A stretch of DNA of 58,804 nt. Source: a virus (Duplodnaviria > Caudoviricetes). The translations under genes were made by a program, and so were the position numbers. Positions 7,217 through 41,780 of this stretch are shown here, one piece after another. Each line of letters starts with the position of its first letter. Within the stretch, counting starts at the first letter, position 1. Where the stretch lies: the IMG/VR virus record IMGVR_UViG_3300033150_000453, positions 1-58,804 of that record; one strand, 5' to 3'. Under the pieces are notes generated by a model. It did not search any database and was not told the origin of the DNA. It saw nothing but the letters and a program-made list of their open reading frames with translations.

Positions 7217-7226
7217 TGAGCCCTCG

Positions 7227-7239: not shown

Positions 7240-7254
7240 TAAAGCCTCAAAATA

Positions 7255-8256: not shown

Positions 8257-8266
8257 TTGGCCTTAA

Positions 8267-8279
8267 TTATCTTTATCGG
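8267..8279 (+). promoter_or_regulatory. TTATCTTTATCGG motif, copy 2
   Basis: Exact intergenic copy upstream of 8328. Confidence 0.6.
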
Positions 8280-8327
8280 AATAGTAGTGGTGCTGAGGCC
8301 GAGGGTTGGCTTCCAAACGAATAAGAC

Positions 8328-9659
8328 ATGCCTATCCCTCCCGGAACAAAATTTCATGGCGTAGCCCCCGGCGTCGATACCGACAACAAGGGGTCAAAGC
8401 GCAAGAACGACCAGCGGAACACTTACACCATCGAGGAGCTTGGCGGTGGCAATACCATAAGTGTAGTTGCTGATAGCAATATCCAAGCGGGCAGAGCTTG
8501 TTATATGGTAGGCAGTGACGAAGCTACGGGGTTGCCATTGGTATCTGACTCCCCGGCATCGGCACCTGTTGGAATAGGCAAGTATCTTGGTCTTCGGGAT
8601 TATTATTCGGGCAATGTTGCTGCTGGCGAGACGTTTGACCTTGTTGTCAACGGACCCGTGACGGCTATCCTTTATCGCACAGACAGAAACATTTATGGTG
8701 ATGGAGGGTTCTATGATGGCCAACCCATATACGTCCACCCTCGGTATGTGAATGAAATCAGCCCTATAGATGGTTCTGGGGTAAAGGTTGGGTATCTAGC
8801 GGACGCGACGGTTATTGACGGGTTTTATCGAAAGGTTTACCTTCAGCCCAACCCCACTACCACTTGGTTCGATGGTGTGGGGTATGGCTTGAGTCATAGG
8901 GTGCCGATTTTTTCTACCCCGAGAATTCCAAACAGCAATACGTATAAGATAGATACGTCCTATTCCGGCACGGGGCTTACGGGAGGAATGATTGTGGTCG
9001 CCCCATGGGTAGAGGGCACCGACAATACATCTACTTTGAAATTTATATCTGTCGGCGATTCTAACGGAACAAACGGAACTACAAGTGGTGTAATTCGCGG
9101 TACAGTTACGCTTGCTCTTGCCGACGATTATTCTTTTGGTGATTCAATTTACATTGAGTCCGGCGGTAGTGGACTTACCCCAACCTCAACTAGCGGAATT
9201 TCCGTTGGTATTATCACAGATGACAATCGAAGTGGTGCGTATGCGGTGGGGACATTTACGGGAGTTCCTTCCGACGGAGACACCATTGAATTCAATTCAA
9301 ACACGTTTTATTTTGTCTCTACAGTTAATTCTGGCAACGCTAGAAACCAGATTGAGATAGGCTCCTTGACATCCGCGAGCGACTTTGCGACTCTTTTCAA
9401 AGAAGTTGTTGATGCTGGCAGCGCAGCTACGGGCTCTGGCAGCGCACCTACAAGCGGCAATAGCTATTACATAGACTCTTTGGTCTTGGGCCTAAGAGCC
9501 AACACCCCGGCCATCAGTCTTGGAGACTTGGTTTACGTATACGCTGTTAAAGGCTCTGCGGGTAACGGTTACACAGCGACTTCTTCGTCCTCTGCATTTT
9601 CTTGGACCCAGACTTTTTCAGGAGGCTCTGATGATTATGAGTGTTACATAGACGTCTAA
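8328..9659 (+). CDS. Putative virion decoration/fibre protein, paralogue 4
   Basis: MPIPPGTKFHGVAPGVDTDNKGSKRKNDQR nearly equals the N-terminus of 2613..4094; GTFTGVPSDGDTIEFN module resembles TLTFSGLPANGETLTIG in paralogue 1. Confidence 0.72.
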   Translation: MPIPPGTKFHGVAPGVDTDNKGSKRKNDQRNTYTIEELGGGNTISVVADSNIQAGRACYMVGSDEATGLPLVSDSPASAPVGIGKYLGLRDYYSGNVAAGETFDLVVNGPVTAILYRTDRNIYGDGGFYDGQPIYVHPRYVNEISPIDGSGVKVGYLADATVIDGFYRKVYLQPNPTTTWFDGVGYGLSHRVPIFSTPRIPNSNTYKIDTSYSGTGLTGGMIVVAPWVEGTDNTSTLKFISVGDSNGTNGTTSGVIRGTVTLALADDYSFGDSIYIESGGSGLTPTSTSGISVGIITDDNRSGAYAVGTFTGVPSDGDTIEFNSNTFYFVSTVNSGNARNQIEIGSLTSASDFATLFKEVVDAGSAATGSGSAPTSGNSYYIDSLVLGLRANTPAISLGDLVYVYAVKGSAGNGYTATSSSSAFSWTQTFSGGSDDYECYIDV

Positions 9660-9766
9660 TGAACTGGACGGCTTTCGAGTGGACCCGGGTTGTCTTGGAC
9701 CTTTTGGCGGATGGATTGGTTATTGTTTTCTGCGTAGTCTCGATATCATTCTTGATTAAAAAGTAA
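9659..9766 (+). CDS. Small membrane peptide (35 aa), not in ORF track
   Basis: MNWTAFEWTRVVLDLLADGLVIVFCVVSISFLIKK; TAATG overlap. Confidence 0.45.
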   Translation: MNWTAFEWTRVVLDLLADGLVIVFCVVSISFLIKK

Positions 9767-9778
9767 GATGCGTCTGAA

Positions 9779-9791
9779 TTATCTTTATCGG
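9779..9791 (+). promoter_or_regulatory. TTATCTTTATCGG motif, copy 3
   Basis: Exact copy upstream of the lysis genes. Confidence 0.6.
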
Positions 9792-9853
9792 AGTAACAAG
9801 CACGAGCAGTATTGGATTTACTGGGACGAGCCCGATTGGGATAACAACGCATC

Positions 9854-10063
9854 ATGGACAGCACTATCACCTTGTTCGAAATCATCACCCTCTCCGGAGC
9901 CCTCATCGGAGTCTACGTCAAGTTGAGTAGCGAGGTCGGCAAGCTCAAGTCCCGCATCATCATGCTAGAGCGGCAGGAAAGCGAGGTGAAGGCAATGCTG
10001 ACGGCCCTTACCGAGGCTGTGCAAGAAATTAAGATTCTGCTGGCCCAAACGGGCATCAAGTGA
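9854..10063 (+). CDS. Putative holin-like membrane/coiled-coil protein
   Basis: One N-terminal hydrophobic helix plus coiled coil, directly before the endolysin. Confidence 0.55.
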   Translation: MDSTITLFEIITLSGALIGVYVKLSSEVGKLKSRIIMLERQESEVKAMLTALTEAVQEIKILLAQTGIK

Positions 10064-10413
10064 AGTACTTCACCTACGACGAATTCGACAGCCCGGACCA
10101 GCCGGGGTCGGGCTACGAGATGGAGCCCATCTTTTTGGAGAAGCTTGATTTGGCTCGCGAGCTGAGCGGCGTTCCGTACGTCATCAACTCTGGCTATCGT
10201 ACGGAGTACTGGAATCAAAAAGTTGGGGGCCGCGTTGGAAGCAGCCATCTTACGGGCTGGGCGGCCGACATCCGTGCTAACAGTTCCAACCGCCGGTTTT
10301 TTGTTCTGAAGGGCCTTATCGAAGCCGGATTCGACAGGATTGGCGTGGGCACCAACTTCATCCACGTGGACTGCGACCCGAGCAAAGCAGGCAACGTAAC
10401 GTGGTTGTACTGA
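10060..10413 (+). CDS. Endolysin, peptidase M15 family
   Basis: INSGYRT..N.KVGG...SSHLTGWAADI...RIGV...FIHVD Zn-peptidase motifs. Confidence 0.9.
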   Translation: MKYFTYDEFDSPDQPGSGYEMEPIFLEKLDLARELSGVPYVINSGYRTEYWNQKVGGRVGSSHLTGWAADIRANSSNRRFFVLKGLIEAGFDRIGVGTNFIHVDCDPSKAGNVTWLY

Positions 10414-10431
10414 ATTGCGTAACTTGGTTCC

Positions 10432-10590
10432 ATGATTGATTTTATCACTGAGTTTTGGGCTGAGCTTTTGCTCGCCGCTCTGGCATTCGCGAAGGTCATC
10501 GTGAATCTCACACCGACGGAGAGCGACAACCAAGTCTTCGGGTATCTGGATTTGCTTATTACTGCTATTACTGGCGACCGCCGTAAGTGA
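10432..10590 (+). CDS. Small holin-like membrane protein (52 aa), not in ORF track
   Basis: MIDFITEFWAELLLAALAFAKVIVNLTPTESDNQVFGYLDLLITAITGDRRK, directly after the endolysin. Confidence 0.6.
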   Translation: MIDFITEFWAELLLAALAFAKVIVNLTPTESDNQVFGYLDLLITAITGDRRK

Positions 10591-10591
10591 G

Positions 10592-11833
10592 ATGGCTAAG
10601 ATTGGCAACGACACAAGCTATCCTCAAAAGACAACCCCGGTAGGGGCGGATACGCTTATTGGCACCGACTCTCAGGATAACGAGAATACTAAGCAGTTTA
10701 CTGTTCAGGGCCTCGCGAACTTTGTGACAGGCGGCGGAGGCGTTGTCAACACCGTTACTGGGACTAGCCCTATACAGGCGACCCCGACTTCGGGCAACGT
10801 CAACGTAAGCCTTTCTACTGTGTCTTCTCAAGGCACATACAGTTACGCGAGCGTCATTGTGGACCAGTACGGCCGTGTTATTGGAGCTAACTCCAACACT
10901 CCCGTTACCGCTGCTTCCGCTGGCGGGACAAGCCTTACTGGGGATGTAACTTTTGCCGCAGGGCCAAACACCATTGTTACTGGTGACGCAGCCACCAACA
11001 CCATTACCATCGAGTCTACGGGGGGTGCGGGCCCCGGCGGTACGGTTACTCAGGTTAATACCGGGACAGGGCTCTCTGGAGGGCCGGTAACAACTACCGG
11101 AACCATTTCTTTGGCCAACACTGCTGTAACTGCGGGGAGCTATACAGCGCCTACTATTGCGGTTAATGCTCAGGGTCAGATTACTTCTGCATCGAGCAAC
11201 ACCATTGACCTTCAATACGTCCTCAATAACGGAGGTGTATCTAATGGTCAATCCGTTATTCTTACAGGCACAGGTGTTCAGATTAGTGCGCCGGGCGCGG
11301 TTTTTACCAGCTCTAACACTGGCTCCACTGTTACCGCCGACCTGCGTGTAGGCAACCAGCTTCTCGACTACAACAATGCCTTTGGGACTAGCGGTCAAGT
11401 CCTTGTGGCGGACCCTAATGCGGGGGGAGTTGGGGTACCCGGGGTGGTTTGGGCCAACCCCTCTACATTCACGGCCACAGCCACGATTAGTTCAGCGGCG
11501 CTAAATGCAGCTACTCCCGTTCAAGTTGTAGCTGCGCCCGGAGCCGGCAAGTACATTCAGGTCATTTCTGCCGCAGCGAAATACAACTACGGAACCTCGA
11601 CTTATAGCTTTAACCAGCCTTTGAAGCTGTACACGAACGTCAGCAGCCCGCAGTTTGAGCTTGACGAAAACTTCTTGCTCCTCCCGGCAAGTCAGGTCCG
11701 AGCTATGTCTTTGACTACTAGCGGAGCCCTGACTGAAAACACCGCACTTTTCTTTGCTCCGGCCGCTGTTCCGAGTTCAAATGGCGACGGAGATATTGAA
11801 CTTAACGTACAGTATCGTATTGTTGAGTTCTGA
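10592..11833 (+). CDS. Tail fibre protein
   Basis: Two fibre repeats (YASVIVDQYGRVI; YTAPTIAVNAQGQIT); G/T-rich shaft; segment shared with 5365..6069. Confidence 0.78.
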   Translation: MAKIGNDTSYPQKTTPVGADTLIGTDSQDNENTKQFTVQGLANFVTGGGGVVNTVTGTSPIQATPTSGNVNVSLSTVSSQGTYSYASVIVDQYGRVIGANSNTPVTAASAGGTSLTGDVTFAAGPNTIVTGDAATNTITIESTGGAGPGGTVTQVNTGTGLSGGPVTTTGTISLANTAVTAGSYTAPTIAVNAQGQITSASSNTIDLQYVLNNGGVSNGQSVILTGTGVQISAPGAVFTSSNTGSTVTADLRVGNQLLDYNNAFGTSGQVLVADPNAGGVGVPGVVWANPSTFTATATISSAALNAATPVQVVAAPGAGKYIQVISAAAKYNYGTSTYSFNQPLKLYTNVSSPQFELDENFLLLPASQVRAMSLTTSGALTENTALFFAPAAVPSSNGDGDIELNVQYRIVEF

Positions 11834-12051
11834 TGCGAGACATTAGAAAGCTCTGTGTCGGTCCGAACTACAAGGACTCGATGTGTTACGTGGTGGGGCA
11901 GCCAGTTCTTGGCGGCACCCACCATGTGCATTTAATTAAATACGTAGACGGCAACTTCCTCATCTTCATTGAGCAGGAGGACGTGATTGTGCTTTGGAAA
12001 GAGTTCACGTCTCCCATGCCGATTTCAATAGAGTACAATATCAACTTTTGA
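11833..12051 (+). CDS. Hypothetical protein
   Basis: Coupled ORF (IRKLCVGPNYKDSMCYVVGQ...LWKEF...MPISIEYNINF). Confidence 0.7.
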   Translation: MRDIRKLCVGPNYKDSMCYVVGQPVLGGTHHVHLIKYVDGNFLIFIEQEDVIVLWKEFTSPMPISIEYNINF

Positions 12052-12599
12052 GAGCAGTAGAGCAATTCATTGTACGGGGAGATAGATACGCAAATACCAA
12101 GGGGGACCTCATCGTCAGCGCGAACGAGGAGGACCACCGCTTTTCGAACCGGGAGGGCGAGGTAGTTGCGTTACCCTTGGGCTACGACGGCCCTATCTCT
12201 GTTGGCGACACCCTACTTGTTCACCACAACGTGTTCAAGTACTATAACGACATGAAGGGTCGCCGGCAAAGCGGCAGGAGCTTTCTCAGGGACGACCTCT
12301 TCCTCGTCGACTTCGACCAGTTCTATATGTGGCGTTCGGACGGGGACTGGCGCCCCCACGACAGGTTTTGTTTTGTCAAACCCATACCTCCTGTAGAGTC
12401 AACAATATTTAAGCCGTTGACAGAGGAGCCGTTGATGGGTATAATGAGTTACCCAAATGATTATCTTATGGCGCAAGGAATCAAGTCTGGTGACACGGTA
12501 ACCTTTAGACCCGAAAGCGAGTACGAGTTCATTGTTGACGGGGAGAAGTTGTACCGAATGTTCGACCACCAAATCACATGCAAGATTCAAGGAGGCTGA
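12048..12599 (+). CDS. Divergent GroES-like protein with two modules
   Basis: GEVVALP....ISVGDTLLVHH and IKSGDTVTF..SEYEFIVDGEKLYRMFDHQI; TTG start at 12048 inferred from overlap. Confidence 0.6.
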   Translation: MRAVEQFIVRGDRYANTKGDLIVSANEEDHRFSNREGEVVALPLGYDGPISVGDTLLVHHNVFKYYNDMKGRRQSGRSFLRDDLFLVDFDQFYMWRSDGDWRPHDRFCFVKPIPPVESTIFKPLTEEPLMGIMSYPNDYLMAQGIKSGDTVTFRPESEYEFIVDGEKLYRMFDHQITCKIQGG

Positions 12600-28913: not shown

Positions 28914-30157
28914 TTCTAGCTACAGCTATCGGAAGTGGCGTCGCCGCTGCGGGCGGTACGGCAGCGGTCGTAGCCGCAGGTATCGGCGCGGGAACGACGC
29001 TCTACGGTGGCGCCAAGTCTTTCAGCGATGCTAACAAGGCGCGTAAGCGTGGGGAGGACGCCCAGCGCGACCTCCTCAAGAGTATGAAGGAGGCCAAGCG
29101 GCGTATCGACGTCAACGTCTACGAACAGTTGTCAATTCCCAAGGAGCCATTCGAGCTTATGCGCGAAGCTGCTCTAGTACAGGGCGCTACAGGTATGCAG
29201 GCTGGAGTAGAGGGTGACCAACGTGGCTCAGCGGCTACGGCAGGCCGAATACAGATGGCACAGCAGGCACAGCAAGCTGGCATTAGGACGGCTATGGGCG
29301 AGCAGATGATGGCCATTGATAAGCTCGTAGCTCAGGACGACGCACGCATCCAACAGCAGTTGGCAGGCATCGCCATGGAAGAGGCAGCGGGAGCTCAGGC
29401 CGCTATCCGCGACGCGGAGGAGGACCGGGCAAACTACATCACTCAAGGCGTGGGCACGCTGGGCAGTATCGCCGAGGGGTTGGCTACCAACTACGCGGAG
29501 GGCAACTTTGGTCAGCTTCGACAAGGCAACGCAGACTTGCGTCAGAGTGAGGGGGTGGCCTCTCCCGATACGCGTGTTGGTCGTAGGCAGATGCGAGAGG
29601 GGGACCGTCTTATGAGGCAGGACATGAGGCAGGCAGGTGACCTCAGTGGCTTTGGTTTTGACCAGCAGTTTGATATCACGGCACCTACCCAACCAGACGC
29701 TTATGTGCCTCCGGGCATGACCAACCGCGAGCTGAATCAAGCCCGCCGTAGTGAGCGTCAAGCCCTCAACCAGCAGCGCCGCGACCTCGGTATTTCTCGC
29801 GATGAGTTTGCTCGTCGCCGTGCCGAAGCGGAGGCTTTCGTTCCACGTGAGCAAGAGATGCAAGCTATTCGACAGTTTGACGACAAGAGTTTTAGCTCCT
29901 ACAGGCCGAGCGCAGACCGATTATTCACGCGTAGGGTTCCGGCAACAGAACCGCTCTTTGACCCCTACAATAGGGTTGGTAGCGTCCTTGGAGACCCGAA
30001 TAACCCAGATAGGTTTGATTATCGCACAATGCGTACGATGACTTTGGGCAACAGCTACGATGACCTCCCCACCGGCCCCCGCCCGTTGCCTCCGGGACCG
30101 CCTAATCTCGGACAGTACTCTGGCCTTGGCTTCCCGTCATACTTGATGTACGAATGA
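28901..30157 (+). CDS. Putative internal virion (ejection) protein 1
   Basis: G/A-rich hydrophobic N-terminus and Q/A-rich helices, as in DNA-transfer proteins. Confidence 0.65.
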   Translation: MSGVILATAIGSGVAAAGGTAAVVAAGIGAGTTLYGGAKSFSDANKARKRGEDAQRDLLKSMKEAKRRIDVNVYEQLSIPKEPFELMREAALVQGATGMQAGVEGDQRGSAATAGRIQMAQQAQQAGIRTAMGEQMMAIDKLVAQDDARIQQQLAGIAMEEAAGAQAAIRDAEEDRANYITQGVGTLGSIAEGLATNYAEGNFGQLRQGNADLRQSEGVASPDTRVGRRQMREGDRLMRQDMRQAGDLSGFGFDQQFDITAPTQPDAYVPPGMTNRELNQARRSERQALNQQRRDLGISRDEFARRRAEAEAFVPREQEMQAIRQFDDKSFSSYRPSADRLFTRRVPATEPLFDPYNRVGSVLGDPNNPDRFDYRTMRTMTLGNSYDDLPTGPRPLPPGPPNLGQYSGLGFPSYLMYE

Positions 30158-32124
30158 GCTATTTCAAGTACGCCGAACGGTCATCTGAATCTCGGGTAGA
30201 CTGGAATGAGATTAGCAAGGGCATGGTCGACATGCTCAAGGAGCAGACGCGCCTGCGCAACGAGAAGCTCGACGAGGCGGTAAAGCTCCAAGGCGAAGTC
30301 ACGACCACCCTGTCCGAGGCCCCGATGGGGTCCGACGTGAATGCCAACCAGCGGGTGGCAGAGTTTGCGTCCGACGCGCAGGAGTATTCGCTCATGATGA
30401 ACAAGCTGTGGCGTAGCGGGGAGATGAGCTACCGGGAGTACATGGCTGCGACCAACAACTTCAAGACCAATACCGAGGGATACCTCAGTCAGGCCGAGAA
30501 GTACGCCGCCAACTACGAGGTTCACAAGAAGCGCATGGAGGAGCAGATTGCCTCTGGCGTAGAGGTGTCTGAGCTGGCCCGTGTCGAGGACTTTGGCAAC
30601 TTCAGCAAGTTCACCCCGGTTATCGACGCGCCTACAGGCGCTATTGGATTGGTGGGAGAAGACGGAACCAAGTACGCCAGCATGACTCAGCTTGGCGTAG
30701 CCGTTATGTCTCAGTACGACAGGCTCGATGTCAATGCCGCTACTACTTCGGTCGCAGAGCAGATGGGCACTACGGTTGAGGTGATTAAGAGAGGCGGTGT
30801 TCGGACTCTGGAAAGCGCATTGCAGAACGAAGATTACATCGCCGCCGAGGACAACGCTATCAGCGGCATCCTTGTTGGCGACAACGCCCATACGTCTGTT
30901 TTGGTCGATTACGACATGGGTGCATACAGCACGACCCACGACATCAACGACGCCATCAACGACCCCAATGCCATCCTTATGGTCCCTAGCTCTAGGAATC
31001 CAAACAGGATGATTGGTGCTGTCGAAGACGATGCTGCCTTTGATAGGTACATCGACGAGCAAGCCACCCGAAACGGTCAGCCTCTGACCGATGGGGAGAA
31101 GGCCACTCTCCGACGCCACCGTGACGCGCAGCGCGAGCAGTCTTTCGAAACCGTTCGCAAGCAGCTCCGTGCCCGACTGGACTTCAAGGAGACTCCGATG
31201 GCGGACCGGCAGCCGCCAAAGCCATCCGACAGAGAGAAGGCTGGGCGCTCTTCCGCTGAAACGGGAATAAACAACTTGCAGGCCATCTACACCGCCACGG
31301 ATGACACGAAGGACAAGATGATTGCCGCCATCAACTACTTCGAGGGGCTCAATGAGGGGCTTGACCTTGAGGTGGTGACCCGTGATAATCAGCGTACTCT
31401 TGCCATCAAGCGTGAGGGTGAGGATGAGACGCGATACATTTCCATGGAAACCGATTACCCCACTTTTGTGGAGTCGGTCTCCACCTTCGTTATGCCGAAC
31501 ACGCAGTACTTGAGTTCTGCGCTTGAAGAGAACCCCCTCCCCGAGGGGGCAACGCGTGGAACGGCTTTGGGTGGTGTCGTGATGGAACGTGACGTAGACC
31601 TCGAAAACATCGGTGCCGAAGTGGTGACGTACGATGAAGATGGGGACCAAATTGAGACCACTTTCCGAGGCTTTATGGAGGGCCTTCCCGTGCCGGAAAG
31701 TGATATGTCAAATGAAGACGACAAAACCATTGTTGCGGTAAACGAAATTAACAGCGCCCTTGACCAGTTGAATTTGACCGATAAGATTACGGTCAGTTCC
31801 GTAGTCGAGAACACACTGGAAGACCTGTATGGCAGGACTTTAGGCACGTCGCCCATCGACTACCCCGGCATAAAAATTCAGGCTCCGAACATGCCGAATG
31901 GAATTCTCATTTCGCATGAGCCAAATGACGTCAACACCATTGGACCTATCTTGGAATTGATTGCTACGGGACGCCCTGTAACAATGGAAGAACTATACGC
32001 TCTCATGGGTGATGAGTCTATTGCAATCACCAACAAGCTGATTGAGAAGGGACACTTGAACATCGAGCGGCCCGAGATTCCGAATCCAAACGCGCAAACA
32101 GCTTCAGGAGGTAACGTACGGTAA
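30154..32124 (+). CDS. Putative internal virion (ejection) protein 2
   Basis: 656-aa helical protein between ejection protein 1 and the giant gene. Confidence 0.6.
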   Translation: MSYFKYAERSSESRVDWNEISKGMVDMLKEQTRLRNEKLDEAVKLQGEVTTTLSEAPMGSDVNANQRVAEFASDAQEYSLMMNKLWRSGEMSYREYMAATNNFKTNTEGYLSQAEKYAANYEVHKKRMEEQIASGVEVSELARVEDFGNFSKFTPVIDAPTGAIGLVGEDGTKYASMTQLGVAVMSQYDRLDVNAATTSVAEQMGTTVEVIKRGGVRTLESALQNEDYIAAEDNAISGILVGDNAHTSVLVDYDMGAYSTTHDINDAINDPNAILMVPSSRNPNRMIGAVEDDAAFDRYIDEQATRNGQPLTDGEKATLRRHRDAQREQSFETVRKQLRARLDFKETPMADRQPPKPSDREKAGRSSAETGINNLQAIYTATDDTKDKMIAAINYFEGLNEGLDLEVVTRDNQRTLAIKREGEDETRYISMETDYPTFVESVSTFVMPNTQYLSSALEENPLPEGATRGTALGGVVMERDVDLENIGAEVVTYDEDGDQIETTFRGFMEGLPVPESDMSNEDDKTIVAVNEINSALDQLNLTDKITVSSVVENTLEDLYGRTLGTSPIDYPGIKIQAPNMPNGILISHEPNDVNTIGPILELIATGRPVTMEELYALMGDESIAITNKLIEKGHLNIERPEIPNPNAQTASGGNVR

Positions 32125-35100
32125 TGAACGACGAGCAGGTACTCAAGGATTTTATTGCGACCGCGCAGGCCAATAATTATAACTATGATGTGGTCATGCC
32201 CAAGTTCCCGGAGCTTGAAGGCTACGACCTTCAGGTGCTCAAGGACTACATCGCTACAGCGGAGGCCAACGATTACAACTATGAGGTAATCAACCCCAAG
32301 TTCCCCGAGCTGTTCGACGATAAAAAAAAAGACGATACGGAATCTGTATCGGAGGTTGGTTCATTGGAGCCACCCGTTGTTGAGGAACAAGCTGAACGGG
32401 CCCGGAACCTACGCCCCACTGCGCGGCTGAACGAAGACGGAACGGAGTCTACCGTCTTGATGGCTTCGATGGAAGTCGACGGGAAGAACGTGGCTATCCC
32501 AACCCTATTCCCCAAGGACCCAAACAACGTCACGTCGAGCCCCGAGGACTGGATGGAGCTGGACGCCATGGAGGCATACAACACCGCCCTTGAGCGCGGA
32601 GAAGTCTTTGAGTTCGAAACGCCCGAGGAGGCCAACGCTTTCGCTGAGGGCTCTTGGAAGGTTGACACCCCCGTTGAACAGCCCCGCACGGAGGCGGACA
32701 CTTTCTTCGACATGGCTTTGGAGGCGGTTACGCCCGAGCTAATCGACAGGGGCGACGAGGACAAAGTAGCCTTTGAGCTCAACGACCTTCTCAACCAGTT
32801 CGGTTTCAATGTCGAGACGTCTGGGTTTCTGACCGACGCCTTGAAGGTGACGGCCAAGAACGGCCAGAGCATTGACGTAGACCTTGACCCGTTCCGAACC
32901 AGTACTGAGGTGGCGGAGTCGGACAAGCTCCGTCAGTTCCTTGTCGACAACCGCCGTGAGTCAGAGAACCTGCTCAAGCAGGAAGACGACTATCAGGCCG
33001 CTAAGCTGAAGTTCGCCACCGAGAAGCAGATTGACGAGAACGTAGCCCGCCTGAACCAACAGGCGAACGAGTTCCAGCAGTTCGCTCGCGAGGTCGACGA
33101 TGCGGCTTTGCAGATTCAAAAGAAGCACGCTGGCTTAGAGAAATACACCGAGGAGTATTTGCGTGCCAACCCCGAGGAATACGACGAGTACAAGGCTCAA
33201 TACGATGCTTACGCAGCCGATATGGCTGCTCTCGAAGACTTGGACAAACAGTTGCAGCGGCGTAGCCAAGAGCTGCTGTATGCCGACCAAGAAATCAATC
33301 GCGCCGCAGGAGAGTACATCCAAACCAAGGGTGAGTTCTTTAGGTCAGACATCCCCGGCTTGGCCAAGCGTGCCCTAGCGGAGGGGACGTCTCGTTTGGC
33401 ACGGGGAAGCGTAGACCTTATGGTCGACATCGGACTCCCCGGTCGCGCAATCGACTACAAGCTCGGCACCTTGGACAGGGCCGACGAGGCGGAAGACTTT
33501 GTGTTGGCAGCCAACGAGATTGGCCTAACCAATATCCCGGAGGACGCGGTTGAGAACTTCGACGCTTGGTGGGACTCCCTCCCCGAGGACCTTCAGCAAG
33601 ACATTACTGCTAAGCACCTCGACAACTACGCCAAAGCCCTCAAGTATGGTGGCGAAGATGCGGCGAAGATGTCTGGCGTCGACTTGGAAAAGGGACTCGG
33701 CGGTGACGCATTTGATGGAACGATGTGGGTCTTCGGAGAGTCCGAGGGCGACCTTACTTACGACCTGACTAAAGAGGGTTGGTGGGGTGGCGCGATTCTC
33801 GGTGCCATTGAATCCATTCCCGCCTTTGTTGGCTTCGGGAAAAGCGTCGTGGGCAAAGCCCTTGGTGCGGGTACGCGCTTGGGTAGGCTCTACACACAGA
33901 CTTCCGACCACGTTGACGAGGAGTTCCGCAAAGACCCCGAGTTGCGTAACGTAAGTGAGGCCGATAAGCTCAAGCTGAAAGTCCCGCTGTCGCTGACGGT
34001 AGCTGCACTGGAGAATGTTGGCTTCAGGAACATGGTGCAGTCGAGGAACCTGATGGGCAAGGCGCTTCTTAAGATTGCCGGTAAGCCCACCGAGCGGGCT
34101 ACGGGCCGAACATTTCGAGAGATTATTCAGCGTGAGGTCAATAACGGTGTGGCACGCGCTGGACTCACTCTTACTGCCGGCGCCGCTGCCGAGTTCGAGA
34201 CCGGCTTTGCCCAAGAGGGTGCCGATATCGCTATGAAGAAGCTGTGGAACTTGACGTCAGAAAACCCAGAGTTCGAGACCCCGGACAATGTCCTTATGGC
34301 GATGCTTAACGGCGGTGCTCAGGAGGCTGTGGGTTCTTTCGTCCTCGGCGCCCCCACTGCTGTTGGTGCGTATGCTAACAAGTCTGACTTCTCCAAGCTG
34401 TCAAATGCGGAGCTGGCGGTATTCGAGTGGATGTCCAACCCCGGCAACCGTGGTGCTACCAAGCCTATGATTGCTGCCCACCTAAAGAACCTTGTCAACC
34501 AAGGCAAGCTGACGGGGGCTGAGGCCAAGGCTGCACTCGACGGTTACGAGCGTACCTCACAAGCCATGGATGGCATTCGTGGTGTAGATGGTATGACGCC
34601 CGAGCAAAAGAAGTCGTACCTCGCTATGGAGCTCCGCAAGCAGGAGTTGCAGAGGCAGCTTGACGGTCGTGCCGCACCGTTCAAGAAAGCCATCCAGCAG
34701 GAGATTGACGACCTAGGAATTAGACAACAAGAGATAGCAGATGCCGTTCAAGAGCAAAGCACAGAGAAGGTTCCTACACGCGACGAATCCGGAGCTCGCG
34801 CAGAAGTGGGAAAAGAAGTACAAGACGAGCAAGAACCTCCCGTCGAAACTCAAGAAGCGGAAGAAGAAGTAGAGAGAGACTCTCTTTTTGAGCAGGCAGC
34901 TCGGGCCGTCATTGAGTCTGGTATAGCCGATTCTGGCGCTCTGATGCGGAAGTTTAAAATCGGTAATAACCGGGCCGGTAAAATCATTGACCAGCTTGAG
35001 CAGGCAGGAGTTGTTAGTGAGTTTAGTCCAGAAGGCCGAAAGGTCCTGATGGACGAAGGCGCTTTAGATAATCTGTTGGCTCCAACAGAGGAGGTCGCAC

Positions 35101-38100
35101 CTGCTGAGGAAACGGCCCCCACAGAAAGTGCCGCACCAGAGCTGACCGAAGAGGAGCGTGCCGAGGCCGAGGCTTTGGAGGCGCAGTTTGGTGCCGAGGG
35201 TACACCCGACGTTACCGAAACCACTGACGATGGCGTCAATGTGCGCACGCGTGAGGGCAGCAAGCTGACCAAGAAGCAACAGCGGTATGTGGAGCAGGCC
35301 AACAACGTATTGAAGGCCCTTCAGTCCGTTATCCCGGATGTCAAAGTCGTAGCATACCAAACTACCGAGCAGTACCGTGAGGCTACTGGCCGGAGCGGTA
35401 GCGGGATGTACTTCGACAAGACCATCCACATCAACCTCGCCAAGGCCAATAGCCGTACTGCTTTCCACGAGGCGTTCCACGCCATCTTCTTGGAACAGCT
35501 ACGTAACCCCGAGAGTAACGAAGAGGCGCAGGCGAAGGCAAAGGCGTTGCTGCGCACCATCCGTAAGGCTATCCCGCCGAAGTCGGTTCTGGCTAACCGT
35601 ATCGACAACTTCCTCACTCAATACGAGGAGCAGGACATCAGCGAGGAGGCTTTGTCGGAAGTCTTCGGGTACATCGCCAGTGGCTATACCGCCCTCGGCC
35701 CACAGGTCAAAAGCAGGATTAAGGCCGCCATCAAGGGCTTTATCGAAGGCATCATCGGTCGCAAGCTGGGGTCGCAGTGGTCACAAGGCGACCAAGCTGT
35801 GCTTGACGCCATGCGGTTGCTGGCTGGTAAGGTCGAGCGTGGTGAAGCCCTGACCGAAGAGGATGTCGCTGGTATCGAGGTCAGTGAGGAGGCTGCCGCC
35901 AAGGAGGAAGCCGAGGCAGAGCTGGACCGTGGCATCAGTGCGATTCAGAAGCTGCGTCAGGATGCTTTGAGTGCCGCTAATGACGTACTTGGGCCACTGG
36001 CTGAGAAGGTGACCAAGACCGACAAGGGTCGGGAGACCCTGCGCAAACTGGTCAAGCGTATCGACGACAAGAAGCTCGCGTCCATCGAGAAGAAGATGCG
36101 CGATGCGAAGAAGTCGAAGAAGATGTCCGAGGCCGACAAGGCTGAGCGCATTGCGTCATTACAGCGTGATGCGGAGGCGGAGATGGAGCGGCTCGCCAAG
36201 GAGCGTGAGGCTGTAGCCAAGGAAGCTGAGGAGGCTTTGGAGAAGCTCAAGCCCATCGAGGAGAAGCAGGAGCAGGAGTCCAAGCTGGCCGATATCAAGC
36301 GGCGGCAGAAGGAGATTACCGAGCAGCTTTCCAAGGACAAGCGCGAGGCAAAGAGGACTTTCGAAGGCGAGGAGCTCAAGGAGTATGTGAAGGGTCTTAC
36401 CGAGGAGGCTGAGGCCAAGCGGGCTGCTTTGCGTGACGAGATTGCTGAGCTGCGCGGGAAGAAGAAGAAGGTCGAGGAAGAAGCCCCGGTGGAGGAGGCA
36501 CCCGTTGAGGAGACCCCCACCGTCGGCACCATCCGCACCAAGGTTGGCGTCGAGGCGTTCGGGAAGTTGGAGGCTGCGGTGCGCGACTACTTGGAGTATA
36601 TGGATGCTCTCGACCCGGAGCAGGACATGACCCGTGGTCAAAAGGCTGCGTCCACACGACGGGTAAACAAGGTGGTGAATCTGGCTTTCGAGCTAGGCTT
36701 AACTGATGCGGAGCAGGCGGTGGTGCAGAACTCCGTACAGGAAAAGATTGATGCAGAGAAGCGGGCAGCCGAGGCGAAGGAGGCCGAGCAGGCCGAGCTC
36801 ACGGCAGCAGCCGAGCGGGCTAAGAAGGCAGCGGAGGAGCCCACGGTGGAGGAAACGGTAGAGGAGGAGCCCACGGTGGAGGAGACGGTGGACGACGCAG
36901 AGATTGCCCGGCTTGAGGAGGAGCTGCGCAAGGCTGAGGAGGACCTTGACTTCTACAACCGTGACGAGCCGGACAATACCAAGTACCCGAAGTACAAGAG
37001 CTTTAAGCAGGCGAAAGAGGCCATCAATGCGGGCAAAGACCCGCGCTTCCATAGTATGGAAGACGCGCCGTCTATGGGTGCGCAAACAGCTAATGAGAAC
37101 TTAGATAGAAAGTACACGGCTGAGCAAAAAACTCCCTATATAACGGGTTTGGAGACGACCATGGTGTTTGAGGACAGTGCTCGCGACGCCTTGGTTTCCA
37201 TCAACAGGACATACAGAGCCACTAAGAGCAGAGACACCGCCGGTGTGGGTGAAGACCTTGAGAGCACGGTCGAAGACCTAAAAAAACAACTCGCCGAAGC
37301 CAAGAAGACTCAGGCGCCCAAGGCTACGGAGGCGCAGAAGCGTGCTGCTATCGAGGGCGTCAGCGTGGAGGATTTCACCAAGGAGCAGCAGCGGGTAGAG
37401 CGCCAGCGGAAAGACACGCTGTCTCGGCAGGCGAAGCGGGAGCTGGACGGGCTGAAGGGGAAGACCGATAAGGCGTCCAAGGCCAAGAGGGCAGAGCTCA
37501 AGGAGTTCATGTCCAACCTCGGTACCATGTCCGTGGACGAGGCTCAGGCGAAGCGGCAGCCCAAGGCTCGGGAGCAGCGTGCTTCGGAGGTGTTGGGTCG
37601 GTACAAGTTCCGTCCGGACGGAAGTCTGATTGGCGATGCAAAGCTGGCAGCAGAGCTGCGTGGCTACATGAAGAAGTTTGGCTTCGGAGTGGAGCAGTTC
37701 GGAGACCGCGACGACAGGTTCTATATCGTGGAAGACGGCAAGCGGGTCAAACCTGCTGACGTCATTGCCAGCGACGAGGCGTTCATTGCCGACCGAGAGG
37801 CCATCGAAGCAGAGCAGCGCGAGGCGCAGGCCGCAGAGAGCTTGGCCCGTGCCGAGGCTGAAGACCTGCGTACCGAGGGACTCAAGCGGTACCAAGACGA
37901 GTACCTCGACTTCCCGGAGGGGATGATTCCTCCGAGCCGGTTGTCGGCCCGTGAGCAGCGTAGCGACCTCGGAGATTCCACCGAAGGGTTCTCTACCTCA
38001 GCCGTGGTTAAGTTCGCCAAGGAGCGCGGCTTCTCCGACAAGGCCATCCTCGCCGTACGCCCCGGGGCAGAGCAAGCCATCGCCGAGTACGACGCCAAGG

Positions 38101-41100
38101 CTGCTCGTGTCAACCGTGAGATTCAAGGCATCATCCAGCGCACTCGAGAGCGCGTGCGTGGTGAGGCTTCCATCCAAGCCATCACCAACAAGGGGGCCCG
38201 AGCCAAGGCCGTCAACGACCGCATCGAAGAGGCCGTGCTCGAGTATCTGCGTGGTTCCAAGTTCTACAAGGACGCATCCGATGTGGGGCGTGAGGCTATG
38301 GAGCTCAACGTAAAGCGGCAGATGGGGCGTCGCATCAAGTCGTCACCCAAGCCGGGCACCATCCTCAACGCACCGAAGGACAAGACGTTTACGGTCAAAG
38401 AGAAGGACGCCCTCCGCCAGAAGATTCGGGACATGGCCCGCAGCTCCGCAAATACGGCAGCAGCTATCGCAGCGGCCCGTCGCGAGCTTGCCAAAGACGT
38501 GGCTAAACTGCGGAAGGCAGGTGCCCTTACATCCGCTCAGGCAGCGGCGCTGGTGTCTCGCATGAGCCGCACCAATCCGCTCAACGAGGCTTCGGTAAGC
38601 TCATTCATTGAGTACGCCGACAACGTATTCAAGGACGCCGACTACGCGGACAAGATGAACCGCGCAAATAAGCTGCGTAAGCGCGCGTGGAGGAACGTAG
38701 AGTCAGGTAAGATTGGCGTTGCCGAGAACATCAAAGAGTCTATCCGCGTCATCACCGGCATCAACGCAGAGGTTATTCCGGAAGGGGCGCTCGAGGACTA
38801 CATGGAGCTCATCGAGATGTTGGGTGAACGCAAGGCTACACTCGACTTGGCCCCGATGGGACAGGTGGAGATGCTAGTCGATGGCATCATCAACGAAATC
38901 AATCAGGAGCTCAACGCCAAGGACGAGTTGCTGGCCGAGTTTGAGAACTTCGAGGACAAGGTATATACCAAGGAGGGCAAGCTGAGCGTGGCCAGAACTA
39001 TTACGGCTATGGTCAAAGCTGGCGTAATAACCGAAGACGAGGCCAAGCTGTTGCGGAAGTATGGCTCCGAGCTCTTTGTTGCCCCGGAGGGTAAGACCGA
39101 GGAGGAGTTGGAAGACGCTCGTCGTGACGAGAAGATGCGACTGCTCACCGCCGTTGAGGCTTTGTCAGCCTTACCTACCAACTTCGGGCTTCGGGAGGAG
39201 AACAACCTCGTGCGGCAGCTTAACCAACTGATTCGTACGGGGGCTGTAGAGAAGCTGGACAATGCCGAGCTGAAGAACCTGCTGCGCGTGGCAAACAATA
39301 TCGAGAACGGCTTTGTGCCGCACATGACAGAGATGTTGGTGGAGAAGCTCGACGGCTTAGTGCGTGCCGACCAAGTGATGCAGTCCATCTACAACGACAA
39401 GTCCGGTCTCGCCCGGTTCTTTGATAGGACTAGGCTCACCTCCTTGACGCGACGCGGGCGACGCAACCCGCAGTACTACATCGACCAAGTGTGGGGTGAC
39501 TTCAAGAGCACGCGTATCTACGACGCCGTATTTGCTCCTTTGGCTAAGGCTTCCGCTCAGTTCCGCTCGGAGTTGCAGGGTATCGAGGCCCGCATGGACA
39601 ACGTGGAGAACGCGCTCATCAAGAGCCTCAGTCGTGACCCGAACAAGATTACTCGTGCTAAGTTCCTGCTCGGAGCATACATGATGCAGAAGGAGTTCGA
39701 GGCCAACGAGGGGCGGACGGGGGTGTATTCCGCCGTCGACCTGCTCGATGCGACCATCGACCAAGCGGACACCCGTGGAAACAAAGTCAAGTATAACCGA
39801 GAGTCTGCTGCGGTGCTACAGTCTATCCGTGATGAGATAGACGGCAAGTCCGCTGCGGAGATAGAGGCGCTGATTCGCAAGCAGAAAGGCGGGGAGCAGA
39901 TGATGGCCGTGGCAGAAGAGATTCGGAAGATTAACGACGAGCTCACGCCGAAAGCCAACTATACGGCGAGCGTGCTGCGTGGCATGCCGTTCCGTCCGTA
40001 TTCACAGTATTTCCACCGCGTTGTGCTGACGCCAGAGCAGGATGCAGGTACCATGTTCTCTTCCGGGAATATGGCTGACGCACTGAACAAAAGGTTCCAA
40101 GCCACGACGAAGGCTAAGAACCTCATCGAGCGTGAAGGAGGTGCCGCTCCGGCAGTGAGCTTCGACCCGTTTGCTTCTGTCAACCGTGGTGCCAAGTTCA
40201 TCCTGACCGACTACCACATGACCAAGCCCGTGCGCACAGCGTATCGGATGCTGAAGAACTTGGAGAATGTCAGGGGTCTCAACCTCAGGCAGGAGGAAAT
40301 GCTTGACCTTATCGACGATAGCGTGCGCCAGCTTGTGAAAGACCAGCTCGTACAAACCGTCAACCAAGACAGTATGGCCTCCAAGATTTTCAATACCGTA
40401 AGGAAGATTGGATACCAGCTCACCCTCGGTCAGGTTGAGCGAGCCTTCTCTGAGTTCGGCTCCAACTTGGGATATGCTCTAACGGTAGACCCCGGCGCGT
40501 TCCGTGAGGGGCAGCGGTATCGAAACATGTATCACAACGAGGGGGCCAACATCCTTCGCAACGTGGGAAGCGTGCAAACGACGAGGCTGTTCCCTGATGG
40601 TGAGGGAACGCAAATCACTTCATCCGCCCTCGACCAGTTCCGTGAGGCCACGTCTCCCGGTCGGGCAGAGATTCGTGGCGGCGCATCCAATGCCTTTGGA
40701 AAGATTTGGGCTAACACCGGCGGAAGCTTGCAGAAGGTGACGGGTAAGTTGGCAGACAAGATGATTACCACGCCGGATAAGGCGGTGTCTCGCCCCTTGT
40801 GGTTTGGTTCTTTCTCACGGTCTTTCGAGGCACAGACAGGTCAGAAACCAGACATGGCGAAGATTGCCGAGAACGATGTCCAATACATGAACCAGTATCG
40901 CGGGGCTATCGAAAACGCTACGCGTGATGCTGACGACACGTCAGTCAAGGCGGGTGCTACGGACAACATCTTCTTGGGCATGCTTGGCGGGACCATCCGA
41001 CCCGACGCCAACATCGGCTCCAATGTCTACGCTTTCATCAATAGCTATATGACACGCTTCCTTGTGTTCGAGTATGTCACCACGCGCACGGCACTCAACG

Positions 41101-41780
41101 CTATGGTGGGCAACGGAATGATTACCCGTGGTCAAGGAGCGGCGCTCTTGGGTGGCGTGGGTGTCCGTATGGTTTCTTACACCCTGATGGCAGGATTGAT
41201 GCGAGACTTCATCGCCTCCATGTACGGTGACGATGAGTGGGAAGAAGAAGACATCGCTGAGCGTCTCAAGAGGTCCATCGCTCAGGGGGCGGCCACGCTA
41301 GTTCTGGGCGGCACTCGTGGTCAACTTGCCCGTGGTGCTGTCGCAATTCCTGTTGAGCTCATCAACCGTGATATGTACGGTGACGAAGAGTACGGCTTTG
41401 GCAAGCGTGTTATGATGCCGCTGTTCGACATCAACGACGAGAAGCAGTGGAAGGGAAAGATGTGGGACGCCTTTACCCGTACGTCTGGTCCGCTCGGCCC
41501 GGCGCTTCGCTTTGCCGAGGGCGCCCTCGGATTCGCTGCCGAAGAGCTTGGCATCAAGAAGAAGAGAAAGGACGCAGCCCGTCAAGAGCAGGAGTACACA
41601 AGGTCCCTTATCAAGGGTCTCGGTGTTGTCGGTCTACTGCCCTTCGCCAACGACATCAACTACCACTACCAGCGGTACATCTACAAAGACATTGACAAGG
41701 AGGATACGGGGCGGAGAACTCGGGAGTCGAGAAGTAGAGAGCGCCGAAGTAGAGAGCGTAGGGCGGGAGAGCGTCGCTAG
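32124..41780 (+). CDS. Giant polyvalent internal virion protein (3218 aa) with FtsK-gamma and HExxH modules
   Basis: Last late gene; DSLFEQAARAVIESG...KIGNNRAGKIIDQLEQAGVVS; TAFHEAFHAIF...EEALSE; long coiled coils. Confidence 0.75.
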   Translation: MNDEQVLKDFIATAQANNYNYDVVMPKFPELEGYDLQVLKDYIATAEANDYNYEVINPKFPELFDDKKKDDTESVSEVGSLEPPVVEEQAERARNLRPTARLNEDGTESTVLMASMEVDGKNVAIPTLFPKDPNNVTSSPEDWMELDAMEAYNTALERGEVFEFETPEEANAFAEGSWKVDTPVEQPRTEADTFFDMALEAVTPELIDRGDEDKVAFELNDLLNQFGFNVETSGFLTDALKVTAKNGQSIDVDLDPFRTSTEVAESDKLRQFLVDNRRESENLLKQEDDYQAAKLKFATEKQIDENVARLNQQANEFQQFAREVDDAALQIQKKHAGLEKYTEEYLRANPEEYDEYKAQYDAYAADMAALEDLDKQLQRRSQELLYADQEINRAAGEYIQTKGEFFRSDIPGLAKRALAEGTSRLARGSVDLMVDIGLPGRAIDYKLGTLDRADEAEDFVLAANEIGLTNIPEDAVENFDAWWDSLPEDLQQDITAKHLDNYAKALKYGGEDAAKMSGVDLEKGLGGDAFDGTMWVFGESEGDLTYDLTKEGWWGGAILGAIESIPAFVGFGKSVVGKALGAGTRLGRLYTQTSDHVDEEFRKDPELRNVSEADKLKLKVPLSLTVAALENVGFRNMVQSRNLMGKALLKIAGKPTERATGRTFREIIQREVNNGVARAGLTLTAGAAAEFETGFAQEGADIAMKKLWNLTSENPEFETPDNVLMAMLNGGAQEAVGSFVLGAPTAVGAYANKSDFSKLSNAELAVFEWMSNPGNRGATKPMIAAHLKNLVNQGKLTGAEAKAALDGYERTSQAMDGIRGVDGMTPEQKKSYLAMELRKQELQRQLDGRAAPFKKAIQQEIDDLGIRQQEIADAVQEQSTEKVPTRDESGARAEVGKEVQDEQEPPVETQEAEEEVERDSLFEQAARAVIESGIADSGALMRKFKIGNNRAGKIIDQLEQAGVVSEFSPEGRKVLMDEGALDNLLAPTEEVAPAEETAPTESAAPELTEEERAEAEALEAQFGAEGTPDVTETTDDGVNVRTREGSKLTKKQQRYVEQANNVLKALQSVIPDVKVVAYQTTEQYREATGRSGSGMYFDKTIHINLAKANSRTAFHEAFHAIFLEQLRNPESNEEAQAKAKALLRTIRKAIPPKSVLANRIDNFLTQYEEQDISEEALSEVFGYIASGYTALGPQVKSRIKAAIKGFIEGIIGRKLGSQWSQGDQAVLDAMRLLAGKVERGEALTEEDVAGIEVSEEAAAKEEAEAELDRGISAIQKLRQDALSAANDVLGPLAEKVTKTDKGRETLRKLVKRIDDKKLASIEKKMRDAKKSKKMSEADKAERIASLQRDAEAEMERLAKEREAVAKEAEEALEKLKPIEEKQEQESKLADIKRRQKEITEQLSKDKREAKRTFEGEELKEYVKGLTEEAEAKRAALRDEIAELRGKKKKVEEEAPVEEAPVEETPTVGTIRTKVGVEAFGKLEAAVRDYLEYMDALDPEQDMTRGQKAASTRRVNKVVNLAFELGLTDAEQAVVQNSVQEKIDAEKRAAEAKEAEQAELTAAAERAKKAAEEPTVEETVEEEPTVEETVDDAEIARLEEELRKAEEDLDFYNRDEPDNTKYPKYKSFKQAKEAINAGKDPRFHSMEDAPSMGAQTANENLDRKYTAEQKTPYITGLETTMVFEDSARDALVSINRTYRATKSRDTAGVGEDLESTVEDLKKQLAEAKKTQAPKATEAQKRAAIEGVSVEDFTKEQQRVERQRKDTLSRQAKRELDGLKGKTDKASKAKRAELKEFMSNLGTMSVDEAQAKRQPKAREQRASEVLGRYKFRPDGSLIGDAKLAAELRGYMKKFGFGVEQFGDRDDRFYIVEDGKRVKPADVIASDEAFIADREAIEAEQREAQAAESLARAEAEDLRTEGLKRYQDEYLDFPEGMIPPSRLSAREQRSDLGDSTEGFSTSAVVKFAKERGFSDKAILAVRPGAEQAIAEYDAKAARVNREIQGIIQRTRERVRGEASIQAITNKGARAKAVNDRIEEAVLEYLRGSKFYKDASDVGREAMELNVKRQMGRRIKSSPKPGTILNAPKDKTFTVKEKDALRQKIRDMARSSANTAAAIAAARRELAKDVAKLRKAGALTSAQAAALVSRMSRTNPLNEASVSSFIEYADNVFKDADYADKMNRANKLRKRAWRNVESGKIGVAENIKESIRVITGINAEVIPEGALEDYMELIEMLGERKATLDLAPMGQVEMLVDGIINEINQELNAKDELLAEFENFEDKVYTKEGKLSVARTITAMVKAGVITEDEAKLLRKYGSELFVAPEGKTEEELEDARRDEKMRLLTAVEALSALPTNFGLREENNLVRQLNQLIRTGAVEKLDNAELKNLLRVANNIENGFVPHMTEMLVEKLDGLVRADQVMQSIYNDKSGLARFFDRTRLTSLTRRGRRNPQYYIDQVWGDFKSTRIYDAVFAPLAKASAQFRSELQGIEARMDNVENALIKSLSRDPNKITRAKFLLGAYMMQKEFEANEGRTGVYSAVDLLDATIDQADTRGNKVKYNRESAAVLQSIRDEIDGKSAAEIEALIRKQKGGEQMMAVAEEIRKINDELTPKANYTASVLRGMPFRPYSQYFHRVVLTPEQDAGTMFSSGNMADALNKRFQATTKAKNLIEREGGAAPAVSFDPFASVNRGAKFILTDYHMTKPVRTAYRMLKNLENVRGLNLRQEEMLDLIDDSVRQLVKDQLVQTVNQDSMASKIFNTVRKIGYQLTLGQVERAFSEFGSNLGYALTVDPGAFREGQRYRNMYHNEGANILRNVGSVQTTRLFPDGEGTQITSSALDQFREATSPGRAEIRGGASNAFGKIWANTGGSLQKVTGKLADKMITTPDKAVSRPLWFGSFSRSFEAQTGQKPDMAKIAENDVQYMNQYRGAIENATRDADDTSVKAGATDNIFLGMLGGTIRPDANIGSNVYAFINSYMTRFLVFEYVTTRTALNAMVGNGMITRGQGAALLGGVGVRMVSYTLMAGLMRDFIASMYGDDEWEEEDIAERLKRSIAQGAATLVLGGTRGQLARGAVAIPVELINRDMYGDEEYGFGKRVMMPLFDINDEKQWKGKMWDAFTRTSGPLGPALRFAEGALGFAAEELGIKKKRKDAARQEQEYTRSLIKGLGVVGLLPFANDINYHYQRYIYKDIDKEDTGRRTRESRSRERRSRERRAGERR

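Follow-up and report, generated by a model that had tools for sequence, protein, structure and literature searches.

The gamma domain of the DNA translocase FtsK is a winged helix for which, in one structural account, Arg1289 of the Escherichia coli protein is the key contact to XerD, and the same surface, formed by helix 2, the following loop and helix 3, contacts DNA carrying FtsK-orienting polar sequences (KOPS) (PMC5052618). FtsK_gamma-like genes also occur in phages, where their role is stated to be unknown (PMC8190038). Iyer et al. 2017 (PMC5512222) describe polyvalent proteins of phages and conjugative elements as built from several modules and encoded next to virion genes. They hold that such proteins are probably packaged and delivered with the DNA, that a zincin-like HExxH peptidase is their commonest hub domain, and that the FtsK winged helix-turn-helix (wHTH) is an infrequent domain of theirs binding double-stranded DNA (dsDNA). 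This study concerns an FtsK-gamma-type module in the IMG/VR virus record IMGVR_UViG_3300033150_000453, a complete viral record of 58,804 bases that was analysed over its whole length and is called the window below. The module lies within a giant open reading frame (ORF), between two acidic linkers and ahead of a conserved region with an HExxH motif.

The 58 residues singled out by the initial annotation, which was made from the DNA letters alone, are the exact translation of positions 34878-35051 on the plus strand and correspond to residues 919-976 of the giant ORF. PF09397 (FtsK_gamma) is the only Pfam family found in the entire giant protein at E ≤ 1, scoring 52.9 bits (E 3.1e-14) over residues 917-976 and profile positions 2-62 of 63. 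On its own the domain scored 58.2 bits, and a six-frame search of the genome gave 59.6 bits, against a curated gathering cut-off of 30.6 bits. A sequence search of the PDB at E ≤ 0.01 returned six distinct sequences, all of them FtsK gamma domains or FtsK C-terminal constructs (E 7.7e-9 to 2.2e-7). An AlphaFold model of an 86-residue piece (residues 905-990), built on an alignment of 18 small relatives, reached a mean predicted local distance difference test score (pLDDT) of 84.9, with a layout of three helices and a hairpin. Comparison of this model with the PDB by Foldseek at E ≤ 0.001 gave 13 matches, every one of them an FtsK gamma chain from Pseudomonas aeruginosa or E. coli, with target template-modelling (TM) scores of 0.75-0.91 and, in 11 of the 13, a root-mean-square deviation (rmsd) of 1.1-1.5 A over 58-62 columns.

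The assignment to the FtsK-gamma winged helix is thus borne out by the Pfam profile, the PDB sequence matches and the predicted fold, a match being found both by hidden Markov model (HMM) search and by structure prediction. Judged by profile and model, the 58-60 residues are a genuine FtsK-gamma-type winged-helix module. The lack of an FtsK motor nearby, also remarked upon initially, extends to the whole 58.8-kb genome, since PF01580 is unmatched there as well as in the giant protein. A search of the phage genome for a tyrosine recombinase (PF00589) was likewise negative. The domain is not part of a DNA translocase of the FtsK/SpoIIIE type, as the motor and the partner XerC/D-type recombinase are both absent from the genome.

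A search with the conserved C-terminal 800 residues of the giant protein against 5.8 billion proteins recovered 256 giant homologs at E ≤ 0.001, and the best 120 of these, many of them on contigs of about 60 kb, were listed with their domains. Among the 120, precomputed Pfam lists place PF09397 in only two proteins, P0003 and P0006. The homologs were checked for the insert, as had been proposed, by phmmer with the 58 residues, and the same two proteins alone were found. Other modules are scattered through the 120 homologs in a similar way: ART-PolyVal in six, DUF7178 in 10, LPD23 in seven, SHOCT-like in four, SprT-like in three, an acetyltransferase in two, and ParB_N, Kinase-PolyVal and LRR_5 in one each, most of the homologs having no Pfam domain (family names were checked on six of these proteins). 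The Pfam descriptions of ART-PolyVal, Kinase-PolyVal and the LPD families contain the term 'polyvalent protein', and a language-model comparison of the C-terminal core pointed to one LPD39 cluster (score 0.96, a lead only). Because homologs carry ART-PolyVal, Kinase-PolyVal, LPD23, SprT-like and ParB_N modules, the giant protein is, by the domain content of its family, a polyvalent protein; unrelated modules vary between relatives, as is characteristic of this multi-module class. The combination of a gamma domain with a polyvalent protein is already in print as a rare case and is not a new kind of system, since Iyer et al. 2017 list the FtsK wHTH in polyvalent proteins. A word-index search with residues 905-990 among proteins of 1769-5632 amino acids (aa) returned only P0003 and missed both P0006 and an unrelated giant, P0264, so that it carries little weight on the question of rarity.

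The gamma domain is used in many other protein contexts. An HMMER scan with the 86 residues against 1.84 billion representative sequences gave 3598 matches at E ≤ 0.001, the top-scoring of which contain two or three tandem gamma domains. When 10 of the top proteins were scanned, three proved to be ordinary FtsK with an alpha domain and a motor and one had the motor alone, while in the other six gamma was joined to an AAA ATPase, an Mrr nuclease, TerB-C or HIT, or was present only as tandem gamma. The best single-domain identity in this collection, 59%, was to two true FtsK proteins, one of them from a Lachnospiraceae metagenome-assembled genome (MAG). A donor or host assignment from this nearest FtsK was considered and dropped, given the best identity of 59% and the fact that a 60-residue domain does not resolve origin.

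Among 50,697 phage records, 76 contain the gamma domain, in features annotated as RdgC-like 'recombination-associated', FtsK/SpoIIIE-like and small terminase proteins, among others; no giant structural protein carrying it was seen in the 60 listed rows of these 76. A pattern-limited scan of IMG/VR found 79 gamma loci, with frames of 700-1499 codons at nine of them, 300-699 codons at 54, fewer than 300 codons at 16 and at least 1500 codons at none. Seven of these frames, scanned with Pfam, are fusions to DUF4236, DnaG primase, a primase-helicase, a VapE-like domain, ddrB-ParB, DUF6371, and an FtsK motor plus Mrr. In the DnaG-type primase the domain is located between the zinc ribbon and the catalytic core (L012, 2778-6395), and it also occurs within the primase-helicase (L011, 3739-6876), before the VapE-like domain (L074, 8819-11527) and before ddrB-ParB (L058, 7371-10424). 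The unrelated 5368-aa giant P0264 carries gamma at residues 2018-2105, 46% identical to that of the window, and HE..H at 2184; the profile of the HExxH family of the window does not match P0264, in which the order of gamma followed by HExxH is repeated without detectable homology elsewhere.

The picture suggested by these sequence comparisons is that gamma would be a portable dsDNA-binding adaptor, rarely placed in giant proteins. Such a generic adaptor is favoured since gamma is optional in the giant-protein family (two of 120 homologs) and is fused elsewhere to primases, nucleases, ParB-like and RdgC-like proteins. It is given about an even chance that the module of the window acts as a generic dsDNA tether entering the cell with the genome. 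The giant protein would be packaged in the capsid and exit with the DNA, and its HExxH domain, if it is a zincin-like peptidase, may cut the polyprotein at the linkers. The gamma module would serve as a plain dsDNA anchor, without KOPS reading or XerD activation, and would keep the giant protein, or a piece released from it, attached to the entering phage genome, for instance to protect that genome or to place neighbouring modules on it.

Several points weigh against this role. With window residues numbered as the E. coli residue minus 347, from the PDB alignment and the peptide RQFRIGYNR at 1289-1297 (PMC5052618), three near-invariant columns in a set of 236 domains from the 150 best relatives are altered in the window copy. 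Ser1283 is replaced by Asp936 (Ser in 203 of the 236), Gln1288 by Met941 (Gln in 214) and Tyr1295 by Asn948 (Tyr in 188, Phe in 30, Asn in 4). The acidic side chain gained where helix 2 begins could reduce DNA binding, and the domain itself has a net charge of 0 and is placed between linkers of -11 and -19, which could compete with DNA. The module is dispensable, being absent from 118 of the 120 homologs, and so cannot belong to the core ejection mechanism. The peptidase identity of the HExxH region is not settled by its model, with a pLDDT of 66.5 and no significant fold match, and the presence in virions and ejection of this protein family are presumed from gene position and one database annotation.

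The hydrophobic core, G947, R950, A951 and the pattern of the recognition helix are kept in the window copy. The minimal activating peptide of E. coli FtsK (1289-1297) reads RKFKIGNNR here, with six of nine residues identical and R1289 retained. N1296, R1300 and E1303 of E. coli FtsK, which we take to be the positions of KOPS-blind mutants, correspond to N, K and D in the window copy.

These residues also bear on the suggestion in the initial annotation that the protein might compete with host FtsK, so as to block segregation or division, or engage XerCD. As an anti-host decoy, the delivered gamma domain would mimic that of host FtsK, bind XerD or KOPS-like loading sites, and disturb dimer resolution, segregation or division. 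The equivalent of R1289, the key salt-bridge partner of XerD in E. coli, and the six identical residues of the activating peptide speak for such a decoy, as does the predicted fold, which is that of FtsK gamma, and polyvalent proteins are thought to carry anti-host effectors (PMC5512222). However, Tyr1295 of the peptide is changed to Asn and Gln1288 just before it to Met, and no host-like copy is seen, the closest true FtsK gamma being the 59% identical one from the Lachnospiraceae MAG. The non-FtsK uses of the domain, phage and cellular, are moreover mostly fusions to DNA enzymes. With no tyrosine recombinase in the phage genome, this best identity to true FtsK and three near-invariant positions changed, the suggestion gained no support, and a decoy is regarded as very unlikely. 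Still less likely is its more specific form, a virion-delivered FtsK mimic whose R1289-type loop would engage host XerD or FtsK loading sites and, during the first minutes after infection, stall or misdirect chromosome dimer resolution and segregation. If true, such a mimic would let the phage counter a central part of the cell-cycle machinery by means of an optional cassette that spreads between related phages.

The initial annotation also suggested that an injected protein could read oriented motifs on phage DNA. The module would then recognise polar motifs on the phage genome and direct DNA entry or packaging as KOPS does for FtsK. Gamma is indeed the KOPS-reading element of FtsK (PMC8190038, PMC5052618), and a Bacillus phage small terminase carries a gamma domain (PMC8190038). 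The known motifs, KOPS and the SpoIIIE recognition sequences (SRS), are however not polar in the phage genome, where GGGNAGGG occurs twice on the plus and five times on the minus strand and GAGAAGGG once and twice, respectively, counts that have little power in 58.8 kb. GAAGAAG is frequent on both strands (29 on the plus and 12 on the minus strand). The most skewed 6- to 8-mers form no evident polar motif de novo, with the same little power in a genome of this length, and for three of them the surrounding sequence places them inside genes. The genome also has no translocase for the domain to load, and 118 of the 120 listed relatives do without the domain. The proposal remained without support on these counts, and a function in reading orientation is considered barely probable.

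Acidic linkers flank the domain, as had been described (Table 1). The statement that the domain has more A/T-ending codons than its flanks holds only in part. At third codon positions the domain has a G+C content (GC3) of 0.48, whereas the ORF averages 0.70, and it ranks among the lowest 3.7% of all 58-codon windows. The 58 codons that follow it reach 0.53, but the 58 that precede it have 0.33, the minimum of the ORF. Because the upstream linker is even lower, the low-GC3 zone is wider than the domain and not specific to it.

An IMG/VR relative, L004, is 75% identical overall to window residues 780-1249. At the DNA level its flanks are 85-95% identical to the window, whereas the segment 34851-35137 is unrelated: the number of identical positions per 30 nt is 20-30 on both sides, falls to 11-18 in this segment and rises again to 27-30. 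The slot in L004 encodes a different 97-residue segment, for which no relatives were found in the giant-protein family at E ≤ 0.01. Since the flanks are kept in L004 but the slot is unrelated, the gamma domain is part of an exchangeable block, a cassette of about 275 bp that lies between the acidic linkers, in a hypervariable part of the protein, about 140 residues before the invariant HExxH. Repeats flanking the cassette borders were sought, and only short ones at chance level were found.

Across 10 family members aligned over their first 1500 residues, gamma occupies the slot in three, a different helical filler in three and a short linker in four. The filler, an unrelated Lys/Glu-rich helical segment, occurs in P0004, P0005 and P0008, which are close relatives of the gamma-bearing P0006, and the short linker alone in P0009, P0011, P0013 and P0014. 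Both presence and absence of gamma occur in two sub-clades, one with 81-85% identity and the other with 62%. At a position comparable to the gamma slot, the homologous protein gp18 of a Flavobacterium 'elemo' phage has DUF3293 (residues 1323-1392), about 150 residues before its own HEIFH (residue 1543).

Assembled contigs of three sequencing runs, which belong to three studies and are labelled as hydrothermal vent, sediment and marine metagenomes, match the window across the cassette without a single difference over 364-696 nt (34743-35438, 34690-35155 and 34680-35043), although one of the three runs may be the window's own sample. In the marine run X3, the only listed contig at 35192-35414 differs from the window at 25 of 223 positions, alongside the identical contig 34680-35043. 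The same cassette may occur on diverged backgrounds, a reading offered as no more than a hint because mixed strains represented by short contigs can look alike. Runs X6-X21, whose word shares were small, were set aside as indicators of habitat or expression. In the Glu-rich, GAA-repeat part of the upstream linker (34723-34816) the summed contig depth reaches 243 in three runs, where the high-depth contigs run into unrelated sequence and are therefore matches from other organisms to low-complexity coding sequence.

An exchangeable slot of this kind could also house a passenger, that is, an insert acquired by recombination that has lost DNA binding and is decaying into a folded spacer within a variable linker. 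The slot tolerates unrelated fillers or almost nothing, and the near-invariant residues are lost stepwise across the three carriers, P0006 being canonical at all three columns, P0003 having the first two changes and the window copy all three. Between P0003 and the window protein, identity in the domain is 81%, which equals the average over the whole protein (81%); the domain has thus diverged at the average rate, with no sign of either unusual constraint or unusual decay. Against a decaying insert stand the intact frame, the preserved core, glycine, arginine, alanine and recognition-helix pattern mentioned above, and a confident model with pLDDT of 85-95 in 10-residue blocks from residue 11 to 80. 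The difference-free cassette in three runs from three studies, with the above reservation about one run, also argues against it. A passenger is on balance unlikely, and the dsDNA tether remains the preferred interpretation.

Table 1. Features of the giant ORF and of the gamma-domain locus in the window
Feature	Position	Strand	Basis or remark
Giant ORF, 3218 aa	32124..41780	+	last gene of plus-strand head/tail module
Upstream acidic linker, residues 871-918, net charge -11, 16/48 D/E	34734..34877	+	holds lowest GC3 of ORF
Exchangeable cassette	34851..35137	+	nucleotide identity drop against L004
FtsK-gamma winged-helix domain, Pfam envelope residues 917-976	34872..35051	+	Pfam, PDB match, predicted fold
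Downstream acidic Pro/Thr/Ala-rich linker, residues 977-1040, net charge -19, 20/64 D/E	35052..35243	+	
Conserved HExxH region, residues 1061-1251; HEAFH at residues 1115-1119 (35466-35480)	35304..35876	+	family alignment
Conserved C-terminal core, residues 2439-3179 (phrog_32588)	39438..41660	+	protein-family core

The region following the downstream linker contains the HExxH motif. All of the 16 aligned proteins have H1115, E1116 and H1119 and, about 59 residues further on, two Glu residues, and the profile of the region is present in 40 of the 120 homologs. Foldseek gave no match for the model of this region at E ≤ 0.001, the best value being E 0.097 for a low-confidence model (pLDDT 66.5); the weak top matches (E 0.1-1) include the metallopeptidases collagenase, PPEP-1/Zmp1 and MATCAP. 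In one homolog the SprT-like profile scores 25.7 bits, its cut-off being 25.6, and language-model look-alikes of the region belong to LPD23 and LPD1 clusters, with scores of 0.92-0.95 that serve as leads only.

The giant ORF is one uninterrupted frame whose start overlaps the stop of the preceding ORF (30154-32124). On the plus strand, the genes between about 12.8 and 41.8 kb encode in this order the large terminase, the portal protein, several families annotated as 'virion structural protein', a tail-fibre-like protein and the giant protein, while primase/helicase and helicase genes are found on the minus strand past 41.9 kb. The large terminase is 74.8% identical to that of an uncultured podovirus record, MW202828.1. 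Of its 89 matches, 68 are Flavobacterium 'elemo' phage records, with identities of about 45%, and the remainder come from Cellulophaga, Tenacibaculum, Maribacter and Azobacteroides phages. The source of the window is a tailed phage of about 59 kb related to podophages of Flavobacteriia. No near-identical phage genome was found by megablast of the giant gene against the 50,697 phage records.

The location of the giant ORF directly downstream of terminase, portal, virion structural and tail-fibre-like genes on the same strand is that of a late virion gene. The homolog gp18 of an 'elemo' phage (NC_055854.1, 4549-15633), a giant gene of 3694 aa at the same place, is annotated as 'structural protein'; its HExxH region is 33% identical to that of the window protein (residues 1061-1251), and the two proteins also have part of the C-terminal core in common. 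The podovirus MW202828.1 encodes a 3859-aa giant protein at the same genome position (741-12320, minus strand), which has no blastp similarity to the window protein at E ≤ 1e-3 despite the close terminases; among close relatives the giant gene seems to be exchanged as a whole. The MW202828.1 protein carries two HEFGH motifs. FtsK_gamma was absent at E ≤ 0.1 from both gp18 and the MW202828.1 giant.

Gene position and the annotation of relatives suggest that the giant protein of the window is a virion protein. On the same grounds, gene position and database annotation, it is probably packaged in the capsid and leaves with the DNA. The location of the gene in the virion block would also fit a tether acting only inside the capsid, where the module would bind packaged DNA in the head and position the giant protein near the portal or organise the genome end, with no role after entry. 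The Arg/Ser/Glu-rich basic tail of the giant protein could touch DNA in such an arrangement. The module is however optional, and its strongly acidic neighbours would be odd in a capsid packed with DNA, which leaves a purely internal function distinctly unlikely compared with the tether carried into the cell, which is still preferred.

Some further features of the giant protein and its surroundings were recorded. Its N-terminus contains two tandem copies of a 26-residue motif (VLKD[FY]IATA.AN.YNY.V..PKFPEL; window 32139-32312) with 20 of 26 residues identical. The basic tail mentioned above comprises the last 27 or so residues (window 41697-41777) and is not conserved in P0003, the identity of the last block being 0.18. 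A scan for membrane segments found a single weak hydrophobic stretch at residues 558-576, from which no channel is proposed. A crAss-type polymerase site was considered and rejected, as the search for a D.D.D motif gave one match (residue 251), about as many as a rough calculation predicts from chance; searches of the giant protein detected no RNA-polymerase domain. Two ORFs overlapping on the antisense strand have no Pfam match, and no Rfam family was found in 33500-36500. Elsewhere in the window, two adjacent ORFs of 332 aa (6218-7216) and 333 aa (7255-8256), without PHROG match, have an almost identical segment of about 38 nt, similarly placed in each (6741-6778 and 7772-7809), and are probably tandem paralogs.

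Nature offers here a clean case of modules being exchanged in phage polyvalent proteins. The slot before HExxH is occupied by a winged helix in some phages, by unrelated filler in others and, at a comparable position, by DUF3293 in 'elemo' phages. The paired natural alleles, gamma and filler with near-identical flanks, would make it possible to test directly what a rare DNA-binding cargo contributes to infection.

Compared with known systems, the domain of the window belongs to the same Pfam family and has the same three-helix winged-helix fold as FtsK gamma of P. aeruginosa and E. coli (PDB 2VE8/2VE9, 2J5O and 2J5P; with XerD, 5DCF), to which it is 43-45% identical over 58-62 columns with an rmsd of 1.1-1.5 A. 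It keeps R1289, G1294, N1296, R1297 and A1298 of E. coli FtsK, and differs in having Asn at Tyr1295, Met at Gln1288, Asp at Ser1283 and Lys at Arg1300. Whereas FtsK gamma forms the C-terminus of a translocase, the domain of the window does not, and an alpha/beta motor is missing from the genome. The small terminase of Bacillus phages Sam46 and Sam112 has an N-terminal FtsK_gamma and is likewise phage-borne without a motor (PMC8190038). In that protein, however, gamma is fused to Terminase_2 and is proposed to pick packaging sites, whereas the window gamma lies inside a giant late protein unrelated to terminase. The virion RNA polymerase gp50 of coliphage N4 is a giant protein that is packaged and injected, with a zincin-like HExxH domain according to Iyer et al. 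(PMC5512222). In contrast to gp50, the window protein shows no detectable RNA-polymerase domain, and its injection is a presumption drawn from gene position and annotation. In polyvalent proteins the commonest hub is zincin-like (PMC5512222), whereas the peptidase fold of the window HExxH region is unproven and only two modules are recognisable in the giant protein; the example with an FtsK wHTH given there is a Cupriavidus protein. Like the polyvalent proteins of that paper, the window protein is very large, is encoded among late virion genes, and belongs to a family with mosaic optional modules around an HExxH domain. This family is found on phage contigs of about 60 kb, and the runs bearing the gamma cassette come from marine, sediment and vent metagenomes.

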